DNA of 63,271 nt, from IMG/VR virus record IMGVR_UViG_3300008459_009572, positions 1-63,271 of that record; one strand, given 5' to 3'. This DNA comes from a virus (taxonomy: Duplodnaviria; Caudoviricetes). Position numbers and translations under genes: made by a program. The notes beneath the pieces are model-generated. The model was not told the origin of the DNA, did not search any database, and saw only the letters and a program-made list of their open reading frames with translations. This document shows, in pieces, positions 2,985 through 22,788 of the stretch; position 1 is the first letter of the stretch, and the number at the start of each line of letters is the position of its first letter.

Positions 2985-3866
2985 ATGCCTATAACATTAT
3001 CAAATAATAGCGGAACGGGTAACTTTTTACTGATAAACAATACTAATAGTGGTAACTTTGCTTTGAATTTTAGTAGTAGTGTAGTCCCTCCTGTTAGTGG
3101 ATCTGTTTTTTCTCTTATAAATACTATTATACCTTATTTAAGAGCAAACAGTGGTAGTTTAAGAAATCCAAATTTCTTTACTTATTTCTTAGATGGTGGT
3201 CCTTATTCTATAGCAGATGGTGGAAATGATATGTATGATATTGGTAACTTTACCGCTCCTTGGTTGCGTAATAATACTAGCTACTTAAATAGTACTTCTA
3301 TTCCTACCCCAACCCCAGCTTTAAACTATAGTTCTCAATCATCTACTTTAACTGACACTAACTTTTATTATGCTTCATTTGGATATAGTCAATCAACTGG
3401 TTCCTTCCCAGCAGGTTCACAAAATGGAAGATTTCATCCACTAACAATAATTGGAGCTAGAAGTGGATCAGGACCAATTGGATTCCAAAAAGCAGGTAAT
3501 ATTGGAGCAGATGGTGGTGGATCTTTAACTACAGCAAGTATATATTCTGGATCAGTAGTAAATGGATTTACAACTTATGCATTCTACCGTCAAACATTTG
3601 GACAGTCAGCAGATCCAGCTGTATGTGATGTTTATATACTACTAGGTCACCCTAATTGGGGATCTACATTTGGTACAGTAATATCTGGTTCAAATGCTAG
3701 TACAGATAATAATGGTGGTACTCTATATGCTACTGGGTCATCAAGTGAATTACTTGCAATAACTACTTTATTAAGTAGAACAGGATCAATAGCAATTACA
3801 CTTAATGAAGTTAAAACTGTAGTTGATAATTATACTACTTTAATAAAAACAGTACTTAATTATTAA
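2985..3866 (+). CDS. Hypothetical Ser/Thr/Gly/Asn-rich protein, possibly virion-associated
   Basis: Composition typical of beta-rich phage appendage proteins; ATATTTAT motif immediately upstream. Confidence 0.5.
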   Translation: MPITLSNNSGTGNFLLINNTNSGNFALNFSSSVVPPVSGSVFSLINTIIPYLRANSGSLRNPNFFTYFLDGGPYSIADGGNDMYDIGNFTAPWLRNNTSYLNSTSIPTPTPALNYSSQSSTLTDTNFYYASFGYSQSTGSFPAGSQNGRFHPLTIIGARSGSGPIGFQKAGNIGADGGGSLTTASIYSGSVVNGFTTYAFYRQTFGQSADPAVCDVYILLGHPNWGSTFGTVISGSNASTDNNGGTLYATGSSSELLAITTLLSRTGSIAITLNEVKTVVDNYTTLIKTVLNY

Positions 3867-3926: not shown

Positions 3927-5171
3927 ATGCAAAGAAATTACATTGAAAATAATAAAGATTTAACAATTTTTACAATTGACAATTTTATCTCAGATGAAGA
4001 TTGTAATTATCTATGTGATCTTATTGAAAAAAATAACTATAGGTCTCTAGTAACTGGAGAAGGCAACCAATATAGTGTTGCTAATGATAATAGAACTAGT
4101 TCAACTTCTACTTTAGAAAATACTGATTCTATAGTTAAAAAAATAAACGAAAATATTGCTAATGAACTTCAAGTTCCTACTAAAAATGGAGAAACTCTTC
4201 AAGGCCAATTATATGAGATTGGACAAGAATTTAAACATCACCATGATTATTTTTCAGGAGATGGATATATAAATCATTGTTTAGCTAGCGGACAAAGAAC
4301 ATGGACCTGTATGGCTTATCTAAATGATGTTGAAGAAGGAGGTGAAACTGATTTTCCTCAAATTGAGGTAAAATTTAAACCCAAAAAAGGAATGGCTGTA
4401 TTTTGGAGTCATTTTGATAGTAATGGTAAAGAAAATCCCGCTTCTCTTCATGCTGGTACTCCTGTTATTAAAGGTAAAAAAATAATTATAACAAAGTGGT
4501 TTAGAAAAAATGAATGGATAGCTGGGGCAGATAGTCAAGCCGCTCAAAAACATCATGATAATTTAAAACAACAACAATTGGAAAGTAAAACATTTAAAAA
4601 CCCTTTAGAACTTCCTAAATTAACTCCATTAGGTTTTAAAGTAGTAAAAGTACCTGCAGACACATGGCAATTAATTCAGGAATCTTATGGATTACTAAAA
4701 AATGTAATAAGACAAGAAAATTGGGAAGGCATTAAAAATATAATTCATGACAAAGATGGTAATGCCCCCGTTGAAATAATGTCAATGGATAACTGCCCTC
4801 GTATACGTCAGATCATCCATAATGAACTTAAACCAATTCATGAAGAATTTTCAGGGGAAAATTTAGAACCTACTTACATTTACGGGATAAGATCATATAA
4901 AAGAGGAGCTATTTTAGAATCCCATAAAGACAGGATAGCAACTCATCATATATCTGCTATTATTATAGTTGATAAACAAGTAGATAGAGATTGGCCACTT
5001 GATATTCAAGATCATGAAGGTAATTGGCACAAGATATATGCTGAAGTCGGGGATATGATTTTATACGAGTCTGCAATCTGTGAACATGGAAGAAAAGAAC
5101 CACTAGAAGGTGAATATTTTAGAAATTTCTTTGTACATTACAAACTAAAAGACTGGGTTTATAACGGATGA
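3927..5171 (+). CDS. Prolyl 4-hydroxylase-like protein with two tandem 2OG-Fe(II) domains
   Basis: Domain 1: HHDYF, GQRTWT, YLNDVEEGGETDFP, LHAGTPVIKGKKIIITKW (P4Hc pattern); domain 2: HKD...HGR. Confidence 0.85.
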   Translation: MQRNYIENNKDLTIFTIDNFISDEDCNYLCDLIEKNNYRSLVTGEGNQYSVANDNRTSSTSTLENTDSIVKKINENIANELQVPTKNGETLQGQLYEIGQEFKHHHDYFSGDGYINHCLASGQRTWTCMAYLNDVEEGGETDFPQIEVKFKPKKGMAVFWSHFDSNGKENPASLHAGTPVIKGKKIIITKWFRKNEWIAGADSQAAQKHHDNLKQQQLESKTFKNPLELPKLTPLGFKVVKVPADTWQLIQESYGLLKNVIRQENWEGIKNIIHDKDGNAPVEIMSMDNCPRIRQIIHNELKPIHEEFSGENLEPTYIYGIRSYKRGAILESHKDRIATHHISAIIIVDKQVDRDWPLDIQDHEGNWHKIYAEVGDMILYESAICEHGRKEPLEGEYFRNFFVHYKLKDWVYNG

Positions 5172-5995
5172 TTAGTATACCTGTAGCAGTTGCGACTCCT
5201 CATTTTAAATGGCAGATCTCTCTATTTGAATACCAGCATTTTAAAGTGTATGGGGAAGAAGCAGTAAATAAAGCCATTATTCCAATTGTTAAAAGAAATT
5301 TTAAAAACCAAGAAAAAATTGAAAATGTAGATTGGGGTATAAAACTTCCATATCGTATGGTAGAATCTGTATTAGATTTATATAATTTAGATGAAGAAAT
5401 TTATATTCCTTCTAATTGTTATGCCGCTATCAAACAAATAATACATGAAATTAATGATGAAGAATGTATTGAAATACTTGATGCTGATATGCCCCATATA
5501 AGACCATATAGTGGATATATTCCAAGTGATGATGAAATATTAGCAGATGATAGATATGAATCATGGCATATGTTTATATCAAAAGAAGATGGTATTAATA
5601 GAAATATTATACAGAAATATTTAAAACATAATGATAATCAATATATGAACGGTGGTTCTAATATAATTTGTAAAGCATCTACTATGAAAAAAATAATAGA
5701 TGAAGTTATTGAGGTTGGATTACAAATTGGATTAGAACATAAAGGTACAAAACATTCTTGGTGGCAATCTATGTATGCAATTAATGTAGCCTGTCATAAT
5801 AATAGAATAAAAATGATTTCAAGAGATGGATGTTATTTTCCAAACATAAATGAAATAGATTTATCTAAACACCATGTAGTACATTATAGTTGTGATCCTA
5901 TTTTTAATAAATCACAATTTCCTTTAATTAATATAAAAGATTTTCCCAATAATGCTTTTTATAATGCTGTTAAAAGTTGGATTTACGAAAAATAA
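5168..5995 (+). CDS. Putative hydroxyproline/peptidyl O-glycosyltransferase (HPAT/SERGT-like, GT95/96-like)
   Basis: FKWQ near N-terminus, ILDADM DxD motif, WWQSMYAINVAC (cf. WxxEMYAY), VVHYS. Confidence 0.55.
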   Translation: MISIPVAVATPHFKWQISLFEYQHFKVYGEEAVNKAIIPIVKRNFKNQEKIENVDWGIKLPYRMVESVLDLYNLDEEIYIPSNCYAAIKQIIHEINDEECIEILDADMPHIRPYSGYIPSDDEILADDRYESWHMFISKEDGINRNIIQKYLKHNDNQYMNGGSNIICKASTMKKIIDEVIEVGLQIGLEHKGTKHSWWQSMYAINVACHNNRIKMISRDGCYFPNINEIDLSKHHVVHYSCDPIFNKSQFPLINIKDFPNNAFYNAVKSWIYEK

Positions 5996-6861
5996 TGGAA
6001 ACAATATTAGTACAAATAGCATGTAGATTAGATAAAGAAGTTAAAAAAACAATAATTGATTTATACAAAAAAGCAGATAATCCTGATGCAATTGAGATTA
6101 TTGTAATAAATCAAGATTTTGAAAATGATATGTGGAAACAGTCTGATTTTCCTGATAAGGTAACCCTTATTAATATTGAAGAAAGTAAAACTAGAAATTT
6201 AGCACACACTCGTTCCTTTTGTAAATTATATATAAAGCCATCTCATAAATATTTTATGAATATTGATGCTCATAGTAGATTTGATGAGCATTGGGATACT
6301 ACACTTATAACAGCATACGAAAATTATGGGAAAAAATGTATGATAAGTGTTTATCCAAAAGGATATCAAGTAAAACCAAATGGGGAAGATTTTTTAATCT
6401 TAGATAATTCATTTGCTATAAATTATTTTAATACGGTACCCACTGGTATTTTTAGAATTGAAGCTATACCTGTACCTGTTGTAACAAAAGAAAAATACTA
6501 TAGAAGTTTAGCTGCTGGGGGATTTCATTTTACAATAATTGATTGGGTATGGGAAGTTGGATATGATCCGTATTGTGAATGGAATGAACATGAACTAAGT
6601 ATTTCACTTAGAACTTATTGCCATGGGTATGATGTAATTAGTTATCATGTTAGACCTATATATCATTTATATGACCATACTCAACGAAAATCATTAAAAT
6701 CACCTACATTTAATTATGGTATTAACTCATCTGAAAGAATGAAATCATTGATAAAAAAAGAAAATAAAACTTTTTTAGAAAATGTGTATCCACTAGGTGA
6801 CAAAAGAACTTTAGAAGACTTTGAAAAAGAATATAATTTTGAAATAAGCAAACATATATGA
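5995..6861 (+). CDS. Skp1-type hydroxyproline GlcNAc-transferase-like protein (GT60 / Gnt1-like)
   Basis: ILVQIACRLD, ADNP, YFMNIDAHSRFDEHWD, AAGGFHF, GYDP, ELSISLRTYCHGYD, IYHLY; start at TAATG overlap. Confidence 0.75.
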   Translation: METILVQIACRLDKEVKKTIIDLYKKADNPDAIEIIVINQDFENDMWKQSDFPDKVTLINIEESKTRNLAHTRSFCKLYIKPSHKYFMNIDAHSRFDEHWDTTLITAYENYGKKCMISVYPKGYQVKPNGEDFLILDNSFAINYFNTVPTGIFRIEAIPVPVVTKEKYYRSLAAGGFHFTIIDWVWEVGYDPYCEWNEHELSISLRTYCHGYDVISYHVRPIYHLYDHTQRKSLKSPTFNYGINSSERMKSLIKKENKTFLENVYPLGDKRTLEDFEKEYNFEISKHI

Positions 6862-6865
6862 TGCT

Positions 6866-8056
6866 ATGAAAAATATTAATAAACCTATTCAATTATTTAA
6901 AGTACACATGAATTCTAATGCTAAAATAGAAGTAGGAAAAGTACTAGATAGTGGATATATAGGACAAGGTTCTAAAGTAGAAGAATTTGAAAAAAAACTA
7001 AACGAATATTTTAATTCAGACAGAATAGTAACAGTAAATTCAGGAACATCAGGATTACACTTGGCTTTACATTTACTAAAAAAACCTTCAAGCATAGTAT
7101 CTGCTGATGGTTACAGTAAATATGAAAAAAATTGGCCAGGTATACAAGAAAACGATGAAGTTTTAGCAACAGCACTAACATGTACTGCCTCAAATTGGCC
7201 TATACTAGCAAATGGGTTAAAAATTAAATGGGTTGATATTGATGAGAAAACTCTTAATATGGATTTAGATGATTTAGAAAGAAAAATAACATCAAAAACA
7301 AAAGCAATTATAGTAGTACATTGGGGAGGATATCCTTTAGATTTAGATAGGCTTAAAAAAATCCAAGATAAAGCATTTGAATTATACGGATTCAAACCAG
7401 CAATTATTGAGGATGGAGCCCACTCATTTGGTTCTGAATATAAAGGAAAAAAACTAGGTAATCATGGAAATATAGTCATGTATTCTTTACAAGCTATTAA
7501 ACATATAACCTCTATCGATGGTGGATTATTAGTACTACCCTATCAGGATCTTTATAATAGAGCAAAATTAATTCGTTGGTATGGGATTGATAGAAATAGT
7601 AATAAAAAAGATTTTCGTTGTGAGGCAGATATTACTGAATGGGGATTTAAGTTTCATATGAATGATGTTTGTGCAACAGTTGGAATTGAAAATTTAAAAG
7701 ATGCAGATGCAATTATATCTAAACATAGAGATAATGCAAAATTTTATGATGAAAATTTAAAAGGAATCAATAATATTACTTTATTAGAAAGACATAAAGA
7801 TCACAATTCTGCTTTTTGGATTTATAGTTTATTAGTTGAAAATAGAGACGGATTTTATAAACACATGAAAGACTGTGGAATTATAGTATCACAAGTACAT
7901 GAAAGAAATGATAAACACACTGCTGTGAAGGAATTTAGAACTCCTCTTCCTACATTAGATAAAATACTACCAAAAGTAGTTTCCATACCAGTTGGATGGT
8001 GGGTCACAGAAGAAGAAAGACAGTACATTGTTGATTGTATTAAAAGTGGTTGGTAA
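6866..8056 (+). CDS. DegT/DnrJ/EryC1/StrS sugar aminotransferase
   Basis: NSGTSGLHLA, VVHWGG, IEDGAH, SLQAIKHITSIDGG with PLP lysine. Confidence 0.92.
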   Translation: MKNINKPIQLFKVHMNSNAKIEVGKVLDSGYIGQGSKVEEFEKKLNEYFNSDRIVTVNSGTSGLHLALHLLKKPSSIVSADGYSKYEKNWPGIQENDEVLATALTCTASNWPILANGLKIKWVDIDEKTLNMDLDDLERKITSKTKAIIVVHWGGYPLDLDRLKKIQDKAFELYGFKPAIIEDGAHSFGSEYKGKKLGNHGNIVMYSLQAIKHITSIDGGLLVLPYQDLYNRAKLIRWYGIDRNSNKKDFRCEADITEWGFKFHMNDVCATVGIENLKDADAIISKHRDNAKFYDENLKGINNITLLERHKDHNSAFWIYSLLVENRDGFYKHMKDCGIIVSQVHERNDKHTAVKEFRTPLPTLDKILPKVVSIPVGWWVTEEERQYIVDCIKSGW

Positions 8057-8058
8057 TA

Positions 8059-8556
8059 ATGAATTTAATTTTTACGAAGATAACAAAAGACGATTTGGTA
8101 TTTGTAAATAAAATTCGTAATGAATATGCTGTTGAATACTTACATAATAGTCAAACCTACTCATTAGAAGAAACACATGATTGGTTTAATAAGGCTAACC
8201 CTGATTTTTGGATTATATTAGATTCAGATTTGAAAATAAAAGTTGGATATTTTAGATTATCAAATTATTCAAAAGAAAATAAAAACATATATGTTGGGGC
8301 TGATATAGCACCTGAATATAAAGGGAAAGGATATGGTAGGAATGCTTACAAAATATTTATACCTTATTTGTTTGAACAATACGATTTACATAAAATAACA
8401 TTAGAAGTTCTTTCTACAAACATAATAGCTAAAAATCTATATGAAAGTTTAGGATTTACTTATGAAGGTAAAAAAAGAGAAGAAATTTATAAAAATGGAA
8501 AGTGGATTGATTCAATTATAATGTCACTACTAAAGTCAGAATACAAAAGTAAATAA
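8059..8556 (+). CDS. GNAT N-acetyltransferase (PseH/RimJ-like)
   Basis: YKGKGYG acetyl-CoA motif, LEVLSTN..A..LYESLGF..EG. Confidence 0.85.
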   Translation: MNLIFTKITKDDLVFVNKIRNEYAVEYLHNSQTYSLEETHDWFNKANPDFWIILDSDLKIKVGYFRLSNYSKENKNIYVGADIAPEYKGKGYGRNAYKIFIPYLFEQYDLHKITLEVLSTNIIAKNLYESLGFTYEGKKREEIYKNGKWIDSIIMSLLKSEYKSK

Positions 8557-12284: not shown

Positions 12285-12331
12285 ATTATTAATTAACCCG
12301 CTTACCTTCGGGAAGCACAAAAGTGAACATT

Positions 12332-12745
12332 ATGACACAATTAGCACATTGGGGCATTGATCCCTTCGACATTGTTTGGAAAAACTTTTTAAATTCCAAC
12401 TCAACATTTAACACATTCCAAGAAAAAATCAACTATCCAGTTGATATTTATGAAACAGAAACAGGTTTACGATTTGAACTTGCAGTAGTAGGACTTGACA
12501 AATCAGATATAGATATTTTAGTAGAGTCCGATGTATTAAGAATTACCCACGATAAACAAATAACAGAAGAAACAGAAAAGTCTTACCTACAAAGAGGTAT
12601 TGCTCGTCGTTCTTTTGATTTAGCATGGAAAATAGCTTCTAAATTTAATTTATCTAAATTAGATGCTAGATTAGATAAAGGCTTGCTTATTATAGATATT
12701 CCTTATGCAGAGGAAAAAGCACCAAAAAAAGTTACGATTAAATAA
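12332..12745 (+). CDS. Small heat-shock protein (Hsp20/IbpA family)
   Basis: YPVDIYE, ELAVVG, YLQRGIARRSF, LDKGLLIIDIP; alternative GTG start at 12323. Confidence 0.92.
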   Translation: MTQLAHWGIDPFDIVWKNFLNSNSTFNTFQEKINYPVDIYETETGLRFELAVVGLDKSDIDILVESDVLRITHDKQITEETEKSYLQRGIARRSFDLAWKIASKFNLSKLDARLDKGLLIIDIPYAEEKAPKKVTIK

Positions 12746-12747
12746 GT

Positions 12748-12779
12748 TTTGAAAATCGAAGACCTGTCATTATCTTCAA
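12748..12779 (+). promoter_or_regulatory. Putative groES-groEL promoter overlapping the inverted-repeat partner of 12260..12282
   Basis: TTTG-N19-TATCTTCA; contains GAAGACCTGTCATTATCTTCAA. Confidence 0.6.
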
Positions 12780-12802
12780 TTTTTAAATTTTAAAATTATA
12801 AT

Positions 12803-13093
12803 ATGAAGATAAAACCACTGCACAACCACGTTGTGATTAAACAACAAGACGAAACTGAAACAATGTATGGAAACATTGTAGTACCTGATATGGGTAAAGA
12901 AAAACCACTTATGGGAGAAGTAGTAGCTGTAGGACCTGGATTTTATTCGGTTACAGGAACCTTTATTGAAAATAAAATTCAAGTAGGTGAAACAGTAGTA
13001 TTTCCTGCCTTTGGTGGAACTAAAATGACTATTGATGGAGAAGAATATGTTGTAATGAAAGAATCTGATTTGTTGGCAATTTTAGAAAAATAA
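12803..13093 (+). CDS. groES: Co-chaperonin GroES
   Basis: IKPLHNHVV, GEVVAVGPG, ESDLLAIL. Confidence 0.95.
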   Translation: MKIKPLHNHVVIKQQDETETMYGNIVVPDMGKEKPLMGEVVAVGPGFYSVTGTFIENKIQVGETVVFPAFGGTKMTIDGEEYVVMKESDLLAILEK

Positions 13094-13096
13094 ACT

Positions 13097-14707
13097 ATGA
13101 GTAAAATAATAAAATTTGATCGCGACGCGAAAGAAAAATTACAAGTCGGTATTAAAAAAGTACACGATGCTGTAACAGTAACAATGGGTCCTTTTGGACG
13201 CAATGTACTAATTGAAAAAGAACATGGGCAAGTAGCATCAACCAAGGATGGTGTTACAGTTGCTAAAACTATCACATTAGAAGATCCAATTGAAAATATG
13301 GCTGCAACCGTAATTAAACAAGCAGCTCAAAAAACAGTTGATCAAGCAGGTGATGGTACAACAACCTCTACTTTGTTAGCATATAGTATTGCTAATCAAG
13401 CACTTGAGTTAACCTCTAAACCATCAGTTAATGTTACTCAAGTAAAAAAAGGTATTGAAGAAGCAGTTAAAAATGTAGTTGCTGAATTAAAATCAATGTC
13501 TGTAGATATTACTGATGAAAAGCAAATTAAACAAATTGCTACTCTATCAGCTAATGGTGATGAGGAAATTGGAGAATTAGTTGCTACAGCAATTGATAAA
13601 GTAGGAAGAGACGGAATTGTAACAGTAGAAGAATCACGTTCAGGTGAAACTGAACTTGAGGTAGTAGAAGGTCTTCAATTTGATCGTGGTTATAAATCAC
13701 CTTATATGGTGACAGATAACAACACAATGCAAGCTATTTTAAATGATGCCTTTGTATTATTGTATGATGGTCGTTTAAGTGCAGTAAAGGATTTACTTCC
13801 TGTACTTGAGCGTGTATCCTCTGATAATAAAGCATTATTAGTTGTAGCTGAAGATATTGATGGTGAGGCACTATCTACTCTTATTGTAAATAAAATGAGA
13901 GGTATCTTAAAAGTAGCTGCTGTTAAAGCACCTGATTTTGGTGATCGTAGAACATTAATTTTAGAAGACATTGCTACAGTTACAGGTGGTACTGTAATTT
14001 CACCTACTAAAGGAATGAAATTAGAACGCTTTAATATGGAGTGGTTAGGTAAAGCTAGAACAATTACTGTAGGTAAAGATACAACTACAATTGTAGATGG
14101 TAAAGGCAGTGAAGATAAAATTAATGATCGTATTTTAGAGCTCAAATCTCAGATTGAACAAGCAACTTCACCATATGAAATTGAACGTTTACAAGACCGT
14201 TTAGCTAAGATTGTTGGTGGTGTAGCTATTATTAATGTAGGTGGGGGAACTGAGGTTGAGATGAAAGAAAAGAAAGATCGCATTGATGATGCTTTACAAG
14301 CAACAAAAGCAGCACTTGAAGAAGGTATTCTACCAGGTGCTGGTATGGCTTTATTTAGAGCTAAAAATGCAATTAATGATAGAGATAATAGTGATACTGG
14401 ATTAGGAGGACAAATTGTATTTAAAGCTTGTTCAACCCCACTTAATAAAATCTTAACCAATGCTGGCGAAGATTATCATGAATGGTCTTCTATTCTAAAG
14501 GATAAAAATGCAGTTCCTGATATTAAAGGAGATAGAACAGTAGATGCTTTTAAATCAGGTATTATTGATCCAACTAAAGTAGTACGTTGTGCACTTGAAA
14601 ATGCGGCTCATGCTGCTGTTACACTTCTAATGACTGAATGTGTAATACATGATAAACCAACTGAAAAAAAGAAAGATGAGGTTGATTTGTCACAATTTGG
14701 AATGTAA
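13097..14707 (+). CDS. groEL: Chaperonin GroEL
   Basis: TMGPFGRNV, TKDGVTVAK, AGDGTTT, FDRGY, GIIDPTKV. Confidence 0.97.
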   Translation: MSKIIKFDRDAKEKLQVGIKKVHDAVTVTMGPFGRNVLIEKEHGQVASTKDGVTVAKTITLEDPIENMAATVIKQAAQKTVDQAGDGTTTSTLLAYSIANQALELTSKPSVNVTQVKKGIEEAVKNVVAELKSMSVDITDEKQIKQIATLSANGDEEIGELVATAIDKVGRDGIVTVEESRSGETELEVVEGLQFDRGYKSPYMVTDNNTMQAILNDAFVLLYDGRLSAVKDLLPVLERVSSDNKALLVVAEDIDGEALSTLIVNKMRGILKVAAVKAPDFGDRRTLILEDIATVTGGTVISPTKGMKLERFNMEWLGKARTITVGKDTTTIVDGKGSEDKINDRILELKSQIEQATSPYEIERLQDRLAKIVGGVAIINVGGGTEVEMKEKKDRIDDALQATKAALEEGILPGAGMALFRAKNAINDRDNSDTGLGGQIVFKACSTPLNKILTNAGEDYHEWSSILKDKNAVPDIKGDRTVDAFKSGIIDPTKVVRCALENAAHAAVTLLMTECVIHDKPTEKKKDEVDLSQFGM

Positions 14708-14727
14708 TTTGATACAAAATAATAGTT

Positions 14728-15648
14728 ATGAAGCAACACTCACTTTGGATCGAGAAATATAGATCACAAACATTAGAACAATACATAGGTAACGATGCGG
14801 TTAAAGACCGCATCGCTACTTGTATTGCATCAAACGATATACCCCATTTCTTATTTGCTGGCACTGCAGGCACCGGAAAGACTACCCTCGCGAAACTAAT
14901 TGTAAAGAACATCAAATGTGATTATCTTTACATTAATGCCAGCGATGAGAATGGGATTGATATTATCAGAGATAAAGTAAAAGGATTTGCATCTACATCA
15001 ACATTCCAACCTCTTAAGGTTGTTATTTTAGATGAGGCTGATTTTTTAACCCAACCAGCACAAGCAGCACTTCGTAATTTGATTGAGGAGTATTCAATTA
15101 CAACTCGATTTATACTTACTTGTAATTATATCGAGCGTTTAATTGATCCAATTCAATCACGTTGTGAAGTACATATTTTAAAACCACCATCTAAAGGTGA
15201 TGTAGCAAGACATATTTGCACTAGTATTTTAGATGTTGAAGGTGTAAAATATGATATGAAAGATATTGCTCAAGTAGTTAATAGTTTTTACCCTGATGTT
15301 AGATCAATTATAAAAACATTACAACAAAATACTAAGAGTAATGAATTAATAATTACTACTTTAGATGATAATTGGTGTAAACAATTAATCCAAATACTAA
15401 AAAAACGCGATAAAGACGCTTGGTATCAAGTTCGCCAACTTGTAGCAGACGCTCAAGTAGATGATTTTCAAGTAGCTTATAAGTATATGTTTGAGCAACT
15501 ACCTGAATTTAGCTACGGACACGATGCCGAATTATCAGTTGTACTAGATGAACATATTTGGAGAGCAGGTGTAGTGCCAGATAAAGAAATTAACTTTGCA
15601 GCTGCAATAGCAAAAATATTAGAAACAACTAAAAAACAAGTAATATGA
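14728..15648 (+). CDS. Clamp loader AAA+ subunit (RFC small / gp44-like)
   Basis: WIEKYR, GTAGTGKTT, INASDE, LDEAD, SRC motif. Confidence 0.95.
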   Translation: MKQHSLWIEKYRSQTLEQYIGNDAVKDRIATCIASNDIPHFLFAGTAGTGKTTLAKLIVKNIKCDYLYINASDENGIDIIRDKVKGFASTSTFQPLKVVILDEADFLTQPAQAALRNLIEEYSITTRFILTCNYIERLIDPIQSRCEVHILKPPSKGDVARHICTSILDVEGVKYDMKDIAQVVNSFYPDVRSIIKTLQQNTKSNELIITTLDDNWCKQLIQILKKRDKDAWYQVRQLVADAQVDDFQVAYKYMFEQLPEFSYGHDAELSVVLDEHIWRAGVVPDKEINFAAAIAKILETTKKQVI

Positions 15649-15884
15649 GTCAAGAACAAATGAATTTAAATATCACATTAGACAAAACTACAGCTGTAAT
15701 TTGTAGTGGGTGTGAAGGAGAAGTATTCACAGATAGTGTTATGCTTAGAAAAGCATCCCGTTTTATTACAGGTACAGCCCAAGATGCCCTTATCCCTATC
15801 CAGGTATTTTCTTGTGTTAAATGTGGTCATGTAAATGAAGAATTTCTTCCTTCCCAATTAAGAAACAATGCTGAAAATATTTAA
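15645..15884 (+). CDS. Hypothetical Zn-ribbon protein
   Basis: CSGC...CVKC. Confidence 0.65.
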   Translation: MSQEQMNLNITLDKTTAVICSGCEGEVFTDSVMLRKASRFITGTAQDALIPIQVFSCVKCGHVNEEFLPSQLRNNAENI

Positions 15885-16113
15885 TCGATATAAAATGAAA
15901 TCACAAGAACTACAAGCTGAAAATGATGCTTTAAAAGCACAAGTAATGGGTTTAGCATTTAATCTTAAAGTAGCAGAGGAAAAACTACAGGCTGCACAAA
16001 TGCAAATACAAAATCTAGCTGCTAAAAACGACAGTTTGGCTAGCGAAGTAAGACATCTTAATATGTTGGCTATGACTTCTAATAATAATAAAAACGACTC
16101 AAGATATTACTAA
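15868..16113 (+). CDS. Hypothetical coiled-coil protein (start may be 15895)
   Basis: Heptad-rich ORF filling the gap. Confidence 0.55.
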   Translation: MLKIFNRYKMKSQELQAENDALKAQVMGLAFNLKVAEEKLQAAQMQIQNLAAKNDSLASEVRHLNMLAMTSNNNKNDSRYY

Positions 16114-16484
16114 TGAATATATTTGATCATCTTAAAAATATTACTACTAATAAGGGATCATACTTAGGAGATGAAGGATGGAACAACTGGATGATTAATC
16201 GTTATCTTAGTATGGATCCTGATTATTGTGAAGTAGTTAATTATGTTCAAAAGAATACTTGGCAAATGAAAGGAGAGTATTTATATAACCTATATAAGGA
16301 TCTTATTCCTAAACAATATAAATTTCTTAAATACATTAAAGCTAAGAATAAAAAGGAATATAAAGTTGATCAAGTAGAAGCAGTAGCTACTTATTTTGAA
16401 ATTAGTAAAAAGGAAGCTAAACAGTATATTGATATGCTTTCTAAAGATGAATTAGAAAATATAATACTACAAATCAATGGATAA
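16113..16484 (+). CDS. Clamp loader subunit A (gp62-like)
   Basis: FDHLKNI, WMINRYLS, IPKQYKFLKYIK, YFEISKKEA. Confidence 0.75.
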   Translation: MNIFDHLKNITTNKGSYLGDEGWNNWMINRYLSMDPDYCEVVNYVQKNTWQMKGEYLYNLYKDLIPKQYKFLKYIKAKNKKEYKVDQVEAVATYFEISKKEAKQYIDMLSKDELENIILQING

Positions 16485-16698
16485 AAAATTAGATTCAATA
16501 GTAACTTCAATCATTAGACAGTTTGAAGAACGTTCTGCTAAAGGTAAAGCAAAATATGGTGTTGATTTAGATCGTACTGATTTAGATTTACTAGATTGGA
16601 TTGAGCATGCTAAACAAGAACATATGGATGCTATTTTATATTTAGAAAAAATTAAACAAGAATATATAGCAAGTGGCAGCCAAGAAAAAATTATCTGA
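16477..16698 (+). CDS. Conserved phage protein (KYG..LDRTDL family, all-alpha NTP-PPase-like)
   Basis: GKAKYGVDLDRTDL..DWIEHAKQEHMDAILY. Confidence 0.6.
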   Translation: MDKKLDSIVTSIIRQFEERSAKGKAKYGVDLDRTDLDLLDWIEHAKQEHMDAILYLEKIKQEYIASGSQEKII

Positions 16699-17620
16699 TA
16701 TTGAGTTAAAAATTAAAAACTATCAGCCTCCCGAAATAAATCATGCTTTTCAAAGAAGCATTTCTTATTCTCAATATTCAATGTGGGCATCTTGTCCTCA
16801 TAAGTGGTATCTTACTTATGTAGAGAATAAACAACCATATCAAGCTAGTATTCATACTGTGTTTGGTACTGCATTTCATGAAACACTACAATCATATATT
16901 ACTACAATGTATGAAGAAAGTGGAGCAGCAGCTGATAAAATGGATTTAGAAGTATTATTTCAATCCAAATTCTCAGAAATATATTCTAAAGAATACAAAG
17001 CAGCAGGTGCACATTTTAGTAATGCTGAGGAATTAGGTGGATTTTTTGATGATGGAATCGCTATACTAAATTGGATAAAGAAAAATCGTAATAAAATCTT
17101 TACCATACGTAGGATGCGCTTATTAGGGATAGAATTGCCCCTATTATTAAAAGTACAAAATAATTTATTCTACAAAGCATTCATTGATTTTGCTTTATAT
17201 GATGAAGACCTAGATAAAATTTATATATATGACATCAAAACATCAACCAGAGGTTGGACAGACAATGACAAAAGAGACGATGCTAAAATTGCTCAAGTCT
17301 TGTTATACAAGCAGTACTTTGCGAACCAATTTAATGTTGACGTGGAAAAGATCGAAGTTGAATTCTTCATTGTTAAACGTAAAATCTACGAACAATCAGA
17401 ATATCCAATCCCAAGAGTTCAATCCTTCAAACCAGCAAGTGGAAAAAATAAACGAAAACAAGTAATAGATAGCTTTCAAGCTTTTATTAGTGATTGTTTT
17501 GATGATATTGGTAAGCCAAAAATAAAGTCGTATCTTAAAAATGTAGGTGAAAAATCATGCAAATGGTGTCCCTACAACGAAAAACAAGATCTTTGTAATA
17601 AAATGCATTCTTCTATATAA
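16673..17620 (+). CDS. PD-(D/E)XK exonuclease, Cas4/RecB-like with Fe-S cysteines
   Basis: SYSQ..CPHKW, FGTAFH, FIDF...YDIKTS, Q..LY, CKWCPY...C. Confidence 0.85.
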   Translation: MAAKKKLSDIELKIKNYQPPEINHAFQRSISYSQYSMWASCPHKWYLTYVENKQPYQASIHTVFGTAFHETLQSYITTMYEESGAAADKMDLEVLFQSKFSEIYSKEYKAAGAHFSNAEELGGFFDDGIAILNWIKKNRNKIFTIRRMRLLGIELPLLLKVQNNLFYKAFIDFALYDEDLDKIYIYDIKTSTRGWTDNDKRDDAKIAQVLLYKQYFANQFNVDVEKIEVEFFIVKRKIYEQSEYPIPRVQSFKPASGKNKRKQVIDSFQAFISDCFDDIGKPKIKSYLKNVGEKSCKWCPYNEKQDLCNKMHSSI

Positions 17621-17650
17621 TCGTATATATTTATATTCAAATATATTATT

Positions 17651-17845
17651 ATGGGAAACAAAATGCAATTAACAAGCGTGAAAGTTCCTGAAGATTTGTT
17701 TGAGCAATTTAAAATTGCTTGTGTTAAATATAAATTTAGTGTTCAAAAATTAACAGAGCGCTCTATGTACTTATATTTAACTAGCGAAGAATTCAGAAAA
17801 AATATTCACAATCAATTAGACACACAATTTACAGGAAGTATTTAA
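17651..17845 (+). CDS. Small ribbon-helix-helix-like DNA-binding protein
   Basis: LTSVKVPEDLFEQFKIAC strand-helix pattern. Confidence 0.55.
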   Translation: MGNKMQLTSVKVPEDLFEQFKIACVKYKFSVQKLTERSMYLYLTSEEFRKNIHNQLDTQFTGSI

Positions 17846-17855
17846 AAACAGTTAC

Positions 17856-19316
17856 ATGAAAGAAGGTTATATTCCGCAAGCTCAACGCAAAAAGATTCTT
17901 TTACTTTGTGACGATATCCGAATGACAAGTGGTATTTCTACTATGGCTAGAGAAATTGTTATCGGTACTGCCCATCATTATAATTGGGTAAATGTAGGGG
18001 GCGCTATTAGCCATCCTGATAAAGGCAAAAGATTTGATCTAAGTGCAGATACAGGAAACAATGCTGGTATTGATGATGCTAGTGTATTTCTTTATCCTAC
18101 TGATGGGTATGGTTCTCCTGAACTGATTCGACAACTTATTCAAATAGAAACCCCAGATGCAATTATGTTTTTTACAGATCCAAGATATTGGGTTTGGTTG
18201 TTTCAAATAGAACATGAGATTAGGAAAAAAATACCAATGATTTATCTTAATATTTGGGATGATTTGCCTTATCCAATGTATAACAAATCATTTTATGAAT
18301 CATGTGATACATTATTTGCTATTTCTAAACAAACAGAAAACATTAATAGAGTAGTATTAGGACCAGAAATAGCAGCTGAAAAAGTAATTAAATATGTTCC
18401 ACATGGAATTAATGAAAAATTCTTTTTTCCTATTAAACCAGAGCATCCTGAATATTTAACATTACAAGAATATAAAAAGCATCTTTATGGTGAAAAAGAG
18501 TATGATTTTAATTTATTATACAATGCTAGAAATATTCGCCGTAAATCGGTTCCTGATTTAATGTTGGCTTGGAAAATATTCATTGATACACTACCAGTAG
18601 AAAAAGCTAAAAAATGTGTATTTACACTTCATACTCAACCAATTGATGAAAATGGAACTGATTTGCTTGCTGTAAAGGATATGTTATTTGGAAGAAATCC
18701 TCAATATAACATCGTATTTTCTCAAGCAAGAAATCCATCAAACATCATGAATCTACTCTATAACACAGCAGATGTTGTAGCTTTAATTAGTAGTAACGAA
18801 GGATGGGGATTATCTCTTACAGAAGCAATGATTTGTGGAAAACCAATTATAGCTACAGTAACAGGTGGTATGCAAGATCAAATGCGTTTTGAAGATGAAA
18901 ATGGTAATTGGATTAAATTTATAGAAGAATTTGGTTCAAATCATAAAGGAAAATATAAAAAGCATGGAAAATGGGCTTTTCCCGTATTTCCATCAAATCA
19001 AAGTATTGTAGGTTCTGTTCCAACACCTTATATATTTGATGATAGAGCCCAACCAGAACATGTAGCTGAACAAATTGGAAAAATATATGATATTAAGACA
19101 AATCAACCTGAATACTATGCTGAAATTAGTCAAGCCGCTCATGATTGGGTCCATTCAGATGAAGCAATGATGACAGCTAGAATGATGTCTAAAAACATAA
19201 TTGATGGTATTGATGAAACTTTTAATAAGTGGGAACCAAGACATGCTTTTGAAATGATTAAAGTAGAACCACTTGAACAACCAAAACATTTTGTAAAACA
19301 CGTTATCGCTAAATAA
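17856..19316 (+). CDS. Glycosyltransferase, GT4 (GT-B)
   Basis: VPHG, RNIRRK, NEGWGLSLTEAMICGKPII. Confidence 0.9.
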   Translation: MKEGYIPQAQRKKILLLCDDIRMTSGISTMAREIVIGTAHHYNWVNVGGAISHPDKGKRFDLSADTGNNAGIDDASVFLYPTDGYGSPELIRQLIQIETPDAIMFFTDPRYWVWLFQIEHEIRKKIPMIYLNIWDDLPYPMYNKSFYESCDTLFAISKQTENINRVVLGPEIAAEKVIKYVPHGINEKFFFPIKPEHPEYLTLQEYKKHLYGEKEYDFNLLYNARNIRRKSVPDLMLAWKIFIDTLPVEKAKKCVFTLHTQPIDENGTDLLAVKDMLFGRNPQYNIVFSQARNPSNIMNLLYNTADVVALISSNEGWGLSLTEAMICGKPIIATVTGGMQDQMRFEDENGNWIKFIEEFGSNHKGKYKKHGKWAFPVFPSNQSIVGSVPTPYIFDDRAQPEHVAEQIGKIYDIKTNQPEYYAEISQAAHDWVHSDEAMMTARMMSKNIIDGIDETFNKWEPRHAFEMIKVEPLEQPKHFVKHVIAK

Positions 19317-19317
19317 T

Positions 19318-20616
19318 ATGAAACCTTTAGTTTTTATAAGTTGCCCTATTGATACATTTTCTGGTTATGGTGCTAGGTCTAGAGATGTTGCTTTGTCTAT
19401 TATTAAATCTGGAAAGTATGAGGTAAAAATACTACCTCAAAGATGGGGAGCTACCCCCTTTGGATTTCTACAGCCAGATAATCCTGATCATAAATTAATG
19501 ATAGAATGTATATGGCCTAACCCCCAACTTCCTAAACAACCAGACTGCTGGATTCAGATTACTGTACCAAATGAATTCCAACCTATAGGAAAATTTAACA
19601 TTGGTATTACAGCAGGTATTGAAACTACATTATGTGCTTCTTCTTGGATTGAAGGAATTAATAGAATGAATTTAACACTTGTATCTTCAAATCATGCTAA
19701 AACTGTATTTGAAAATAGTAAATATGAAAAGCGAGATCAAAATACAAATCAGATATTAGAAAATATAGAAGTAAAATCACCTATAGAAGTATTATTTGAA
19801 GGTGTAAATAATGATATTTACAAAAAATTAGATGCTTTTAATGGAGAAGTAAATGATACTTTAGAAGATTTAGTAAAAGAAGATTTTAATTTCTTGTTTG
19901 TAGGTCATTGGTTACAAGGAGAAATTGGACAAGATAGAAAAGATGTTGGAATGCTTATAAAAACTTTTCTTGAAACATTTAAAGACAAAAAACAAAAACC
20001 AGGACTTATTCTTAAAGTATCATGTGGTAACTATTCTATAATGGATAGAGATGAAATATTAGATAGAATTAGACGAATTGAAGAAAGTATAGAAGGCGAT
20101 CTACCTAGTATTTACTTACTTCATGGTGAATTAAGTGATGATGAAATAAATGAGCTATACAATCATTCTAAAGTAAAAGCACACGTATCATTTACCAAAG
20201 GAGAAGGATTTGGAAGACCATTATTAGAAGCCTCCATTAGCCAAAAACCAGTAATTGCTTCAAATTATAGTGGGCATTTAGATTTTCTTGATTCTGAACT
20301 ATCAATTTTACTCCCAGGAGAAATAAAACAAATTCACCCCTCAGCAGCCGTACAAGATATGCTCATTCCAGAATCTGGATGGTTTACTGTTGATTATAAA
20401 AAAGCTTCTGAGATATTTGAAGATGTTTATAAAAATTATAAAAAGTATGTTGATAGAGCAAAGAAACAATCTTACCGTTCACGTACTGAATTTAGTTTAG
20501 AAAAAATGTCTGAAAAATTAGTAGGAATACTAGATGAAAAGATACCTAAACCCGTAGAACTTAAACTTCCTCAATTGAAAAAAATTGAATTACCTAAACT
20601 TAAAAAAGTAGACTAA
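19318..20616 (+). CDS. Glycosyltransferase, GT4 (GT-B)
   Basis: SGYG, DRK, GEGFGRPLLEA, SGHLDF. Confidence 0.9.
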   Translation: MKPLVFISCPIDTFSGYGARSRDVALSIIKSGKYEVKILPQRWGATPFGFLQPDNPDHKLMIECIWPNPQLPKQPDCWIQITVPNEFQPIGKFNIGITAGIETTLCASSWIEGINRMNLTLVSSNHAKTVFENSKYEKRDQNTNQILENIEVKSPIEVLFEGVNNDIYKKLDAFNGEVNDTLEDLVKEDFNFLFVGHWLQGEIGQDRKDVGMLIKTFLETFKDKKQKPGLILKVSCGNYSIMDRDEILDRIRRIEESIEGDLPSIYLLHGELSDDEINELYNHSKVKAHVSFTKGEGFGRPLLEASISQKPVIASNYSGHLDFLDSELSILLPGEIKQIHPSAAVQDMLIPESGWFTVDYKKASEIFEDVYKNYKKYVDRAKKQSYRSRTEFSLEKMSEKLVGILDEKIPKPVELKLPQLKKIELPKLKKVD

Positions 20617-21011
20617 TGCAAGAATCACTTATAATATGTTCTAGGTGTGGGGGTAATGCTTGTCATGAAGCATCTAACGGTCAACTTACTATTTGGAGTT
20701 GTTTTGGGTGTGGATTTACAACTAATTCTACTTTAACAGATGATAAATTAGAAGAAGTAGAAGTAGTAATTCCTCAATTATATAAAGATCTTAAATTTAA
20801 AGATGAAAATGGATTATACTGGTATCCAAATAGTGTAATGTTAGAAGATAGATCAATGGTGTTTGCTGATGGTAAATCTATTGATGAATGGAAGTGGGCA
20901 GGAGTTAAATCTGATGGTGAAAAAGCAGATATGACAACAATAAAACATTTTGAAGAAAAAGACTTTATGGAAGCCCTTGATTATATAGGCTTCTTTGAAA
21001 AACAAAAATAA
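20616..21011 (+). CDS. Hypothetical Zn-finger protein
   Basis: CSRC...CFGC. Confidence 0.6.
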   Translation: MQESLIICSRCGGNACHEASNGQLTIWSCFGCGFTTNSTLTDDKLEEVEVVIPQLYKDLKFKDENGLYWYPNSVMLEDRSMVFADGKSIDEWKWAGVKSDGEKADMTTIKHFEEKDFMEALDYIGFFEKQK

Positions 21012-21015
21012 CGTT

Positions 21016-21636
21016 ATGTTAAGAATTAGTTATGCTATTACTGCTTGGAATGAACACCAAGAATTGGATCGCTTACTTGAAATGCTAACAAACAACATTC
21101 GTCCTGAAGATGAAATAGTAGTTCAATTAGATAAAACAGCGACTGCAGAAGTTAGATCTGTTTGTTTTGATTTTGGTAGACCTAATCTTAGGGTAGTTGA
21201 ATTTCCTTTAAATAATGATTTTGCTACTTTTAAAAATAATCTAAAAAAAGAATGCCTTAAAGAATTTATATTTCAGATTGATGCTGACGAATATCCTCAT
21301 CCTCATTTATTAGCTTCATTACCTTCAATTTTAGATTATAATTACAATATAGATGTATTTTTAGTTCCCAGAATAAACACTGTAGAAGGATTAACTGAAC
21401 AACATATTCAACAGTGGGGATGGAATGTAAATGATAAAGGATGGGTTAACTTTCCTGATTACCAATGGCGTATTTGGAAAAATAGTTCTAAAATTAAATG
21501 GATAAATAAAGTACATGAGCGTTTAGATGGATTTAATGAATATTCAGCCTTTCCACAAATGGAAGAATATTGTTTATTTCATCCTAAAGATATTAAAAGA
21601 CAAGAAAAACAAAACCAATTTTATAATACATTATGA
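21016..21636 (+). CDS. Glycosyltransferase, GT2
   Basis: ISYAITAWNE, FQIDADE, PDYQWR, KVHE. Confidence 0.9.
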   Translation: MLRISYAITAWNEHQELDRLLEMLTNNIRPEDEIVVQLDKTATAEVRSVCFDFGRPNLRVVEFPLNNDFATFKNNLKKECLKEFIFQIDADEYPHPHLLASLPSILDYNYNIDVFLVPRINTVEGLTEQHIQQWGWNVNDKGWVNFPDYQWRIWKNSSKIKWINKVHERLDGFNEYSAFPQMEEYCLFHPKDIKRQEKQNQFYNTL

Positions 21637-22037
21637 GTGACAGAAAATATCTACCAACATTAAGTGAATTAATAGATAGACTATCAATTGTACAGCTAAA
21701 AGAAGTATTCATCCCAGAACATAAAAATGAATATGCTAAAGAAATAGCTGACATAGTTCATGATATTCAATTATATTTAAAAGAAAGTAAAGAACCAATT
21801 ACGGCTGATACAATTAGAGCAATTGTTGTTCTTTCACAAATGAATTTACATATTTGGCATAATGAATCTAATTATCGTAAGGGTATTAAAGATGGAAATA
21901 ATTTAGAATTAACTCATGGATTAAATGGTATTCGCAATGTAGCTAAAAATAAAATCCAGGAAATTATGGGTGGTAGAAAAGATTATAAAATTGACTGCTT
22001 AGCAGCTGAATTTAAAGATTGGGATATATCATGGTAA
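21633..22037 (+). CDS. Hypothetical helical protein common in glycan clusters
   Basis: ELIDRLSIVQLK...IWH.E...NGIR...KNKI. Confidence 0.6.
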   Translation: MSDRKYLPTLSELIDRLSIVQLKEVFIPEHKNEYAKEIADIVHDIQLYLKESKEPITADTIRAIVVLSQMNLHIWHNESNYRKGIKDGNNLELTHGLNGIRNVAKNKIQEIMGGRKDYKIDCLAAEFKDWDISW

Positions 22038-22435
22038 AAAAAGTATGGGTAAATGGCGCTTTTGATATCCTTCATATAGGACATCTTAGACTACTTGAAT
22101 ATGCTGCTTTATTTGGCAGTGTTCGAGTTGGTATTGATACTGATAATCGCATTAAAGAAAAAAAAGGAGCTGATCGTCCATACAATACTTTAGAAGATAG
22201 AGTAGAATTTCTATATGGGATTAAATATGTAACAGATGTTGTTACATTTGGATCAAATGAGGAGCTAGTTGAAAGTATTAGAGAATATGACCCTGATTTA
22301 ATGGTTATAGGAGATGATTACAATTATCATACTATTATTGGAATTGAATATATTCCTCAAGTTAAATTCTTTGAGAAAATACCTGGTAAATCAACAACTA
22401 AAATTTTAAATTATGGAAAAACCAATAGTTTGTGA
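22031..22435 (+). CDS. Cytidylyl/adenylyltransferase (RfaE domain II / TagD-like)
   Basis: NGAFDILHIGH, RPYN, GDDY, STTKI. Confidence 0.9.
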   Translation: MVKKVWVNGAFDILHIGHLRLLEYAALFGSVRVGIDTDNRIKEKKGADRPYNTLEDRVEFLYGIKYVTDVVTFGSNEELVESIREYDPDLMVIGDDYNYHTIIGIEYIPQVKFFEKIPGKSTTKILNYGKTNSL

Positions 22436-22784
22436 GGGTTGTAAAGTACCTAAAGGTTGGGGTGAAGAATTAATTATTGAAAATAATGATAAATACTGTG
22501 GCAAGCTCCTTATATTTAAAGCAGGTTGTAAATTCAGTATGCATTATCATATGATTAAAGATGAAACATGGTATGTTGATAAAGGAGAATTCATATATAG
22601 ATGGATTGACACTGAAACAGCTGAAATACATGAAGAATACCTTAAACCAGGAAACGTAGTAAGACAAAGACCAGGCCAACCTCATCAGTTGGAAGCTAAA
22701 ACAGAAGGTATTATATTTGAAGTATCAACAACTCACTTTGATTCTGACTCATATCGTGTTTGGAAAGGTGATTCACAAAAATAA
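22413..22784 (+). CDS. Cupin sugar isomerase-like protein
   Basis: KGWGEE, SMHYH..KDETW, PH, EVST. Confidence 0.8.
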   Translation: MEKPIVCEGCKVPKGWGEELIIENNDKYCGKLLIFKAGCKFSMHYHMIKDETWYVDKGEFIYRWIDTETAEIHEEYLKPGNVVRQRPGQPHQLEAKTEGIIFEVSTTHFDSDSYRVWKGDSQK

Positions 22785-22788
22785 AAAT

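Follow-up and report, generated by a model that had tools for sequence, protein, structure and literature searches.

In plants and green algae, hydroxyproline (Hyp) O-glycosylation pairs prolyl 4-hydroxylases (P4Hs) with glycosyltransferases of the HPAT family (GT95) and decorates extensins and arabinogalactan proteins. Plant and algal P4Hs hydroxylate S-P, T-P and A-P repeat motifs, and HPATs are Golgi enzymes with a type II membrane anchor. In the Skp1 pathway of Dictyostelium and Toxoplasma, PhyA, Gnt1 (GT60), PgtA and AgtA act on a single regulatory proline. The chlorovirus PBCV-1 encodes a collagen-type P4H, vCPH, for which we know of no dedicated Hyp glycosyltransferase partner, and mimivirus L230 is a bifunctional collagen lysyl hydroxylase and glucosyltransferase. 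Oxygenases dependent on 2-oxoglutarate (2OG) also stand side by side with GT-A transferases, sometimes among nucleotide-metabolism genes, in the TET/JBP systems of phage DNA hypermodification and base J. Here, we analysed a 63,271-nucleotide stretch of a tailed phage (Caudoviricetes; IMG/VR record IMGVR_UViG_3300008459_009572; hereafter the window), in which a five-gene module at positions 3927-8556 encodes an oxygenase, two glycosyltransferases, an aminotransferase and an acetyltransferase. We read this module, with moderate confidence, as a system that first hydroxylates proline-rich arrays on phage proteins and then attaches O-linked sugars to them.

An earlier note on this DNA, made from the sequence alone, had proposed a phage-encoded Hyp O-glycosylation pathway of five tightly coupled genes, and all five open reading frames (ORFs) are present on the + strand where it placed them:

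3927-5171, + strand: two-domain 2OG oxygenase, 414 aa (ORF, Pfam PF13640)
3927-4541, + strand: oxygenase N-domain, residues ~1-205, predicted collagen-type prolyl 4-hydroxylase
4599-5171, + strand: oxygenase C-domain, residues ~225-414, predicted second 2OG/Fe(II) oxygenase, no Pfam model
5168-5995, + strand: HPAT-like GT-A transferase (ORF, Pfam PF23452)
5995-6861, + strand: GT60 transferase (ORF, ATG at 5995; a TTG at 5977 is also open)
6866-8056, + strand: DegT aminotransferase (ORF, Pfam PF01041)
8050-8556, + strand: GNAT N-acetyltransferase (ORF, GNAT Pfam families)

These are co-directional genes with strong family matches and not chance ORFs. The oxygenase and HPAT-like genes overlap by 4 nt, the HPAT-like and GT60 genes meet in TAATG at 5993-5997, with one base common to stop and start, the GT60 and DegT genes are separated by 4 nt, and the DegT and GNAT genes overlap by 7 nt. 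On computational evidence, the core of the proposal probably stands, with the hydroxylase and the HPAT-like transferase acting on proteins, probably on the X-Pro arrays of virion proteins, while a conserved unit of five genes and the analogy with the Skp1 hydroxylase find no support.

The oxygenase carries the firmest assignment. As the earlier note had it, this is a P4Hc-type hydroxylase with two 2OG domains, and an HxD...H iron triad is found in both halves. Residues 92-193 match PF13640 (2OG-FeII_Oxy_3; E 7.7e-17, 62.5 bits against a cut-off of 27), and H105, D107, H175, K185 and R56-T57-S58 are invariant across 36 homologues. The iron triad, the 2OG-binding lysine and the R-T-S motif align with those of algal (Chlamydomonas) and Bacillus P4Hs; from the algal P4H structure, we take the R-T-S motif to bind the peptide. 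When the profile of the 36 homologues was compared with sequences of solved structures, nine of nine matches were P4Hs (E 5e-38 to 4e-10), including those of B. anthracis (5e-38), Chlamydomonas (7e-32), human C-P4H-II (3e-28) and PBCV-1 (7.5e-28), and all were confined to residues 12-200. In the AlphaFold model (pLDDT 92.1), the N-domain superposes on the algal Cr-P4H-1 (2jij) with Z 25.3 and an rmsd of 1.7 Å over 179 residues at 34% identity, followed by 7zsc (human C-P4H-II; Z 22.2), 5iax (22.1) and 5c5t (20.9). Outside the collagen-type P4Hs, all Z scores were at most 18.9: 18.9 for the bacterial P4H that hydroxylates EF-Tu, 16-18 for PHD-type enzymes (PHD2 16.0, Dictyostelium PhyA, 6t8m, 15.9), 14.3 for the mimivirus lysyl hydroxylase and 11.9 for NgTET1. 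Identity to peptidyl-prolyl hydroxylases was 34-36%, and the window oxygenase had no Tet_JBP (PF12851) match in Pfam at E <= 0.01. Family and fold both identify the N-domain as a true collagen-type P4H, with prolyl hydroxylation as its predicted activity.

The C-domain is of another kind. H333, D335, H387 and R389 are invariant in the same 36 homologues, and residues 322-356 give a weak match to PF13661 (E 0.0043). The best folds for residues 230-414 were 6n1f (Z 15.6), HalB (7u6i, Z 15.2) and 2rg4 (Z 14.2), and the structural neighbours are uncharacterised or small-molecule oxygenases (Z 14-15.6). The domain matches phrog_2954 (E 2.4e-25) and also occurs as a stand-alone protein of 185-219 aa in viruses and bacteria. 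Both phrog_2954 and phrog_3531, which the C-domain also matches, are annotated as ferrochelatase; given that the fold is that of a 2OG oxygenase, this annotation looks wrong. Structural look-alikes of the C-domain also include diatom proteins, some with an ankyrin-repeat fusion, an observation that serves as a lead only. The two-domain oxygenase is common in metagenomes: a search at E <= 1e-5 gave 1036 clusters, of which the 120 listed were 55-84% identical, and 240 stretches in IMG/VR match the family. Among 50,697 phage records, by comparison, none had the two-domain form, and the 10 records that matched did so with one domain each.

The second gene encodes a protein with a GT-A fold (AlphaFold2 model pLDDT 94.9), for which HPAT is the only Pfam family matched by any family member. 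The earlier note had labelled it HPAT/SERGT-like from the motifs FKWQ, DADM, WWQSMYA and HYS, all of which are in the translation of 5168-5995; the link to HPAT can be kept, at a similarity that is borderline. The window protein itself falls just below the PF23452 cut-off (E 6.5e-5, 22.9 bits against 23.9), E values of 0.01 or lower were obtained for 11 of 24 family members (best 2.1e-7), and fused or related forms reach 37-58 bits against the same cut-off. E102, D105-x-D107, H110 and H239 are invariant in the family. Its closest fold neighbours are of the retaining GT8 and GT77 types (LgtC, Z 15.2; glycogenin, 14.4; AgtA, 6mw8, 14.0). A Foldseek search of the PDB placed GT6 enzymes on top (TM ~0.5) and a BFVD search returned only generic viral GT-A proteins, neither of which discriminates between families, and no sequence match was found to solved HPAT or GT60 structures. 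The first beta-strand begins at residue 2, with no N-terminal hydrophobic segment before it, and the model indicates that the type II membrane anchor of HPATs is missing from this protein. No gene for the synthesis of UDP-arabinofuranose was identified in the window.

We found HPAT-like homologues 33 times in a large protein collection, 80 times in an all-against-all representative library and at 68 IMG/VR loci. The 185,579 prokaryote species genomes yielded a single locus, on a 2.7-kb contig of a metagenome-assembled genome, and the family therefore looks virus-specific. A tblastn search of the 50,697 phage records with the HPAT-like protein gave no match.

What ties the two enzymes together is their linkage, which we counted over the 67 viral IMG/VR loci where our script found the HPAT-like gene. 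An oxygenase ORF is directly adjacent to that gene at 44 of them: a fused two-domain form at 27, a C-domain alone at nine, split domains at three and an N-type oxygenase of ~385 aa at five. At 19 loci there was no oxygenase, and seven of these are cut within ~1 kb upstream of the HPAT-like gene. Fusions of an HPAT-like domain with an oxygenase also occur, the partner being of the PF13640 family in L063 and a hydroxylase domain of the JmjC/Cupin_8 kind in P0169. Co-occurrence beyond this phage, which the earlier note had left to a neighbourhood survey, is borne out in that the oxygenase-transferase pair recurs widely in viral contigs. The other three genes behave differently: GT60 accompanies the HPAT-like gene at 5/67 loci and DegT with GNAT at 2/67 (L004 and L005, where they follow the HPAT-like gene amid three array proteins). 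The conserved core is the oxygenase with the HPAT-like transferase, GT60 and DegT plus GNAT are variable add-ons, and the notion of a conserved five-gene unit has to be given up.

GT60 is nonetheless repeatedly tied to the HPAT-like family by fusion: L071 and L078 encode large transferases that combine the two, and four further proteins (P0170, P0173, P0174 and P0177) do so as well. The closest relatives of the window oxygenase (55-63% identity) share the synteny GCH1, DCD, P4H, a homologue of ORF 2985-3866 and PolB, and in these relatives the P4H gene is followed by one for a single protein, up to 1039 aa long, that combines HPAT (41.9 bits, above the cut-off), O-FucT and GT60 domains. Compared with locus L003, the window is 88% identical in the HPAT-like gene and 80% in the GT60 gene, but only 44% in the oxygenase, indicating that the module is mosaic.

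The genomic surroundings of the pair point to its likely substrates. At 38 of the 68 loci, we found an ORF with (XP)>=4 or (GXY)>=6 repeats. The arrays usually comprise tens to more than 100 residues of T-P, S-P, A-P, V-P or Q-P between small Cys-containing domains and lie mostly in the ORF that ends just 5' of the oxygenase. Their dipeptides are mostly T-P and S-P, while many arrays consist of V-P, A-P or Q-P without a hydroxyl amino acid. Among loci selected with the P4H profile (n = 78), an array ORF lay within 300 nt of the P4H gene in 23. L003 runs from a tail fibre through the array protein to P4H, the HPAT-like gene and GT60. At 17 loci, the genes downstream of the module include one for a tail protein that bears a crAss muzzle C-terminal domain and often T-P linkers; it follows the module directly in about half of them and within ~4 kb in the rest. 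Of the targets considered in the earlier note, virion proteins are the favoured ones, given that the pair often adjoins virion proteins with long X-Pro arrays. On the minus strand of L063, at 13696-18818, two small PF13640 oxygenases accompany a tryptophan halogenase (E 3.5e-98) and a collagen-like G-X-Y protein, an N-type oxygenase standing beside the collagen-like ORF; this contig is also the one with the fusion of HPAT-like and oxygenase domains.

As a control for this association, we used 78 new loci picked by the muzzle C-domain tail protein alone, a choice unrelated to the module, and scored them by DNA patterns, namely an (XP)7 array and an oxygenase C-domain motif that had exactly one match each in 77 of the 78 P4H-selected loci. 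Array and marker occurred together at 19 loci, the marker alone at eight, the array alone at five and neither at 46. The oxygenase marker was present at 19/24 loci with an array and at 8/54 without one (odds ratio ~22, chi-square ~30, by hand arithmetic), and at six of the eight loci with the marker alone, the sequence breaks off immediately upstream of it.

Set against the described systems, the module shares with plant and algal Hyp O-glycosylation the collagen-type P4H, Cr-P4H-1 being the top fold at Z 25.3, and a GT-A transferase akin to the HPAT family, though at borderline similarity; the likely phage substrates are S-P, T-P and A-P repeat arrays, as in plants. It differs from the plant and algal pathway in being encoded by a bacteriophage, soluble and without a membrane anchor, in its second oxygenase domain and in its organisation as an operon or as fused genes. 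With the Skp1 pathway, it has in common a cytoplasmic hydroxylase, GT60 and soluble, sometimes multi-domain transferases, and one of the five best fold matches of the HPAT-like protein is AgtA, the alpha-galactosyltransferase of that pathway (6mw8, Z 14.0). However, the analogy with Skp1 drawn in the earlier note breaks down at the hydroxylase, which is of the PhyA/PHD type in that pathway (Z 15.9 to 6t8m) and of the collagen type in the phage (25.3). Furthermore, Skp1 is modified at one proline whereas the phages have long repeat arrays, and GT60 is optional in phages (5/67). To our knowledge, Skp1 itself is not to be expected in a phage of bacteria.

Two further systems are viral. Mimivirus L230, of which we take 6ax6 to be the hydroxylase domain, is likewise a virus-encoded 2OG hydroxylase and transferase acting on a repetitive structural protein, with the two activities fused as in L063 and P0169, but it modifies lysine in collagen G-X-Y substrates, belongs to a giant virus of amoebae and is distant in fold (Z 14.3). 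The PBCV-1 enzyme (5c5t) is, like the phage N-domain, a virus-encoded collagen-type P4H (E 7.5e-28, Z 20.9), though from an algal virus and with a single domain. According to a passage in one paper, it acts on proline-rich repeats of viral proteins (PMC9301287).

Taken together, the module would be a protein-modification system of the phage resembling eukaryotic Hyp O-glycosylation. Judging from its family and fold, the N-domain would convert peptidyl proline to 4-hydroxyproline with O2, Fe(II) and 2-oxoglutarate; gene linkage and fusions suggest that the HPAT-like enzyme would then place the first sugar on the hydroxylated residue. More tentatively, GT60 may add a further sugar, or may glycosylate neighbouring Thr or Ser, and DegT and GNAT, with dehydratases encoded elsewhere in the phage, may supply an acetamido-deoxy nucleotide-sugar donor. 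We propose that the second oxygenase domain might carry out another oxidation of the same substrate. In related phages, genes beside those of the enzymes would encode the substrates, virion or tail proteins that bear extended (T/S/A/V-P)n arrays. In this phage, the substrate would more likely be a Pro-rich protein from another part of the genome than the product of ORF 2985-3866.

Several observations weigh against this account. A profile of the HPAT-like family matched one bona fide HPAT with only 17% probability (E 0.0014), and we discounted another profile comparison that gave 99.5% because it was partly circular, three of its four target sequences being matches of the query profile; by sequence, the protein is best described as a divergent relative of the HPAT family and not as a member. 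The loci counted here, those of the association control among them, are related, some being near-duplicates, so that the counts overstate independence and the chi-square is not a proper probability. At four of the five array-only loci, transferases follow the array protein without a hydroxylase, suggesting that array glycosylation need not pass through Hyp. At nine loci, only a C-domain oxygenase stands beside the HPAT-like gene, and at L017-L025 no oxygenase of another type separates the array protein from the HPAT-like gene; the sugar acceptor may consequently not be 4-hydroxyproline. A separate N-type P4H at L017-L025, sought with a 'GGETxF' DNA marker, was rejected, the matching L024 ORF being unrelated to the oxygenase. 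In L010, L011, L014 and L015, recombinase, helicase, ribonucleotide reductase (RNR) and QueC genes surround the module and the nearest 9 kb hold no array, and in the window it lies between dCTP-deaminase-like and DNA polymerase genes. Finally, neither strand of the 63-kb window has an (XP)4 match, and there is no Pro-rich ORF either.

These observations bear on the rival explanations to different degrees. The transferases might glycosylate Thr and Ser of the T/S-Pro arrays directly, in a mucin-like manner, with the oxygenase doing something separate, such as stiffening polyproline-II linkers, and with no sugar on Hyp. Arrays followed by transferases without a hydroxylase (L180, L167, L150 and L200), the predominance of T-P and S-P in the arrays, and the trypanosome enzymes of GT60 that act on Thr all speak for such a scheme. 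It would, however, leave hard to explain why the HPAT-like gene adjoins the oxygenase at 44/67 loci and is fused to two oxygenase families if the two work independently, and many arrays of V-P, A-P or Q-P offer no hydroxyl amino acid; we consider direct Thr/Ser glycosylation improbable. We give equally little credence to a scheme in which the transferases, DegT and GNAT of this phage join a sugar cluster at 17.8-37 kb and remodel host surface polysaccharide or protein, for instance to exclude other phages, while the hydroxylase targets a host protein. The missing array protein in the window, the large cluster of nucleotide-sugar and transferase genes at 17856-37175, the position of the nearest DNA relative of DegT in a transferase cluster of Immutovirus and the EF-Tu-hydroxylating P4H as a fold neighbour (Z 18.9) would fit host remodelling. 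Yet collagen-type P4Hs (Z 20.9-25.3) outscore the EF-Tu enzyme, the enzyme pair adjoins phage array proteins in many other phages, the HPAT-like family looks virus-specific, and the window is only part of a genome.

A third scheme, in which a DNA base is hydroxylated and then glycosylated as by TET/JBP enzymes and their associated glycosyltransferases, draws on the neighbouring genes for GTP cyclohydrolase I, phosphoribosyltransferase, a dCTP-deaminase-like protein and DNA polymerase B, on the RNR and QueC-like genes of L015, and on large transferases of L117 and L131 with a weak, below-cut-off match to TAGT (E 1.5e-4). The oxygenase, in contrast, belongs to a different family from TET/JBP (no PF12851 match, Z of 11.9 to NgTET1 against 25.3, and 34-36% identity to peptidyl-prolyl hydroxylases), GT60 and HPAT are protein-directed families, and X-Pro arrays adjoin the enzymes in other phages, pointing to protein as the substrate; DNA hypermodification appears very improbable to us. 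Hydroxylation followed by glycosylation of proline-rich arrays accordingly remains our preferred reading. In a bolder variant, which we think unlikely, the C-domain and not the P4H domain would make the sugar-receiving residue (e.g., 3-hydroxy- or dihydroxyproline) on extensin- or mucin-like virion glycoproteins widespread in aquatic phages, and the P4H that is abundant in viromes as an 'auxiliary metabolic gene' (AMG) would really be an oxygen-dependent enzyme of virion maturation.

The GT60 assignment of the earlier note was confirmed. The 5995-6861 product scores 100.5 bits with PF11397 (GlcNAc, GT60; cut-off 21, E 1.7e-28) over positions 97-306 of the 352-position profile, and the quoted motifs IDAHSRF..HWD, GYDP and HGYD are all in its translation. 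A sequence search of solved structures gave no match for it. In the 50,697 phage records, tblastn found GT60 relatives in four jumbo Xanthomonas/Stenotrophomonas phages at 23-24% identity. In L180 and L167, the genes after that of an array protein encode GT60 (253 and 257 bits) together with a GT32-type enzyme, and there is no hydroxylase. Given that GT60 also stands beside X-Pro arrays where there is no hydroxylase at all, this variable second transferase of the module, predicted to have its acceptor in protein, may act on Thr or Ser. In L150 (4757-7370) and L200 (4589-7149), an X-Pro-array protein is followed by an O-FucT-like transferase and a carbamoyltransferase, again without a hydroxylase, a layout that hints at carbamoylated glycans on phage proteins.

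For the last two genes, the earlier note had named a DegT aminotransferase and a PseH-like GNAT; both families are correct, while 'PseH-like' describes no more than the best match below threshold. DegT matches PF01041 (DegT/DnrJ/EryC1; E 1.5e-71), with PseC as its best NCBIfam match at 205.1 bits, below the cut-off of 423.5. GNAT Pfam families match the 8050-8556 product at about E 3e-16, with PseH best in NCBIfam at 59 bits, below the cut-off of 93.1. By sequence, these are generic enzymes for an amino and then acetamido sugar, not assignable to PseC and PseH, and together they probably make an acetamido-deoxy nucleotide sugar. The module has no 4,6-dehydratase of its own; SDR-type dehydratase-like genes lie at 33.5-36.4 kb. 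They fall within a sugar cluster of ~20 kb at 17856-37175, which holds two GT1 and one GT2 transferases, SDR epimerases and dehydratases, a C-methyltransferase with a zinc domain, a dTDP-sugar 3,5-epimerase, a cupin, a two-gene E1-like pair dependent on thiamine pyrophosphate, an RfbH-like DegT and a PfkB kinase. This composition suggests synthesis of an unusual branched or dideoxy sugar. Inside the cluster, at 24930-28540, four consecutive ORFs of 293-305 aa have no Pfam match, and their similar sizes suggest that they are paralogues.

The phage is large and AT-rich (~30% G+C), and the window, which takes in the whole IMG/VR record, covers only part of its genome, with nearly every gene on the + strand. 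At the DNA level, the nearest isolated relative of the window is the Flavobacterium phage Immutovirus, through the DegT gene only (68% identity to an aminotransferase of that phage). The module is flanked as follows:

1053-2973: GTP cyclohydrolase I (GCH1), phosphoribosyltransferase and a dCTP-deaminase/dUTPase-like gene, just upstream of the module
2985-3866, + strand: S/T/G/N-rich 293-aa protein P0004, directly 5' of the oxygenase
directly downstream of the module: DNA polymerase B (Pfam)

GCH1 in phages is a frequent marker of 7-deazaguanine DNA modification; among the Pfam-scanned window ORFs, we identified no QueC, QueD, QueE or DpdA. Matches to promoter and terminator patterns were no commoner than in shuffled sequences.

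As to the substrate in this phage, no Pro-rich array was found in the window, among its ORFs or on either strand. The PxPxP DNA pattern has nine matches, two of them on the + strand and one of those codon-aligned. The latter, I-P-T-P-T-P at nt 3303-3316, is the only in-frame P-x-P-x-P placed in a window gene and lies in ORF 2985-3866, which has no Pfam, PHROG or NCBIfam match and no usable one in a protein atlas. The family of this ORF is abundant and conserved (337 homologue clusters, 59-86% identity), with I106 and P107 invariant in the alignment, and L071 has a homologue in the same DCD-PolB island. Five of 17 aligned members carry a T/S/P-rich array of ~60-120 residues and one a short (TP)n, inserted at one hypervariable N-terminal site (window residues ~33-36) where members, including P0294, P0299, P0325, P0328 and P0329, have nothing, poly-Thr, (TP)n or a T/S/P-rich array. 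These features point weakly to ORF 2985-3866 as a candidate substrate of which the window copy is almost without an array. A relationship of this ORF to the array protein of L078 was considered and rejected, the N-terminal likeness being not significant (E 1.4). In the whole records of relatives, two of five, including the sole complete one (171,916 nt), encode proteins of at least 671 and at least 728 aa, both ORFs running off the end of the analysed stretch, that carry Pro/Thr/Ala/Ser arrays and lie far from P4H, suggesting that the real substrate may lie outside the window.

Away from the module, the phage encodes Hsp20, a full-length GroEL-type chaperonin and a ClpP protease (12323-14707 and 38059-38598). 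Its thymidylate synthase (52030-53031) has 333 aa and matches a 266-position profile end to end, and must therefore carry an insertion of ~60 residues.

A full-text literature search, with subscription journals and supplements outside it, found no description of a phage prolyl hydroxylase and glycosyltransferase system or of Hyp glycosylation by a phage. The hydroxylase alone has been noticed: in passages of three papers, P4HA (KEGG) is among the most abundant viral AMGs in Baltic Sea water and its use to the virus 'remains cryptic' (PMC9301287), and viral P4H is listed as an oxidative-stress gene (PMC11706807) or as a proline-metabolism gene (PMC9611531). The gene context described here offers a testable answer to the cryptic viral P4HA, namely that it is half of a protein-modification system whose partner transferases lie alongside. 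The oxygenase family is large, with more than 1000 protein clusters, and yet its two-domain form turned up in none of the 50,697 phage records.

If our reading is correct, bacterial viruses would join plants, algae and protists as users of Hyp-type O-glycosylation, and the eukaryotic GT95 and GT60 families would gain a link to phage transferases. The soluble phage enzymes could serve the production of Hyp-glycopeptides in bacteria. Should the acceptor be made by the C-domain, the linkage between protein and sugar would be one not yet described. For the phages themselves, virion maturation would depend on oxygen and 2-oxoglutarate.

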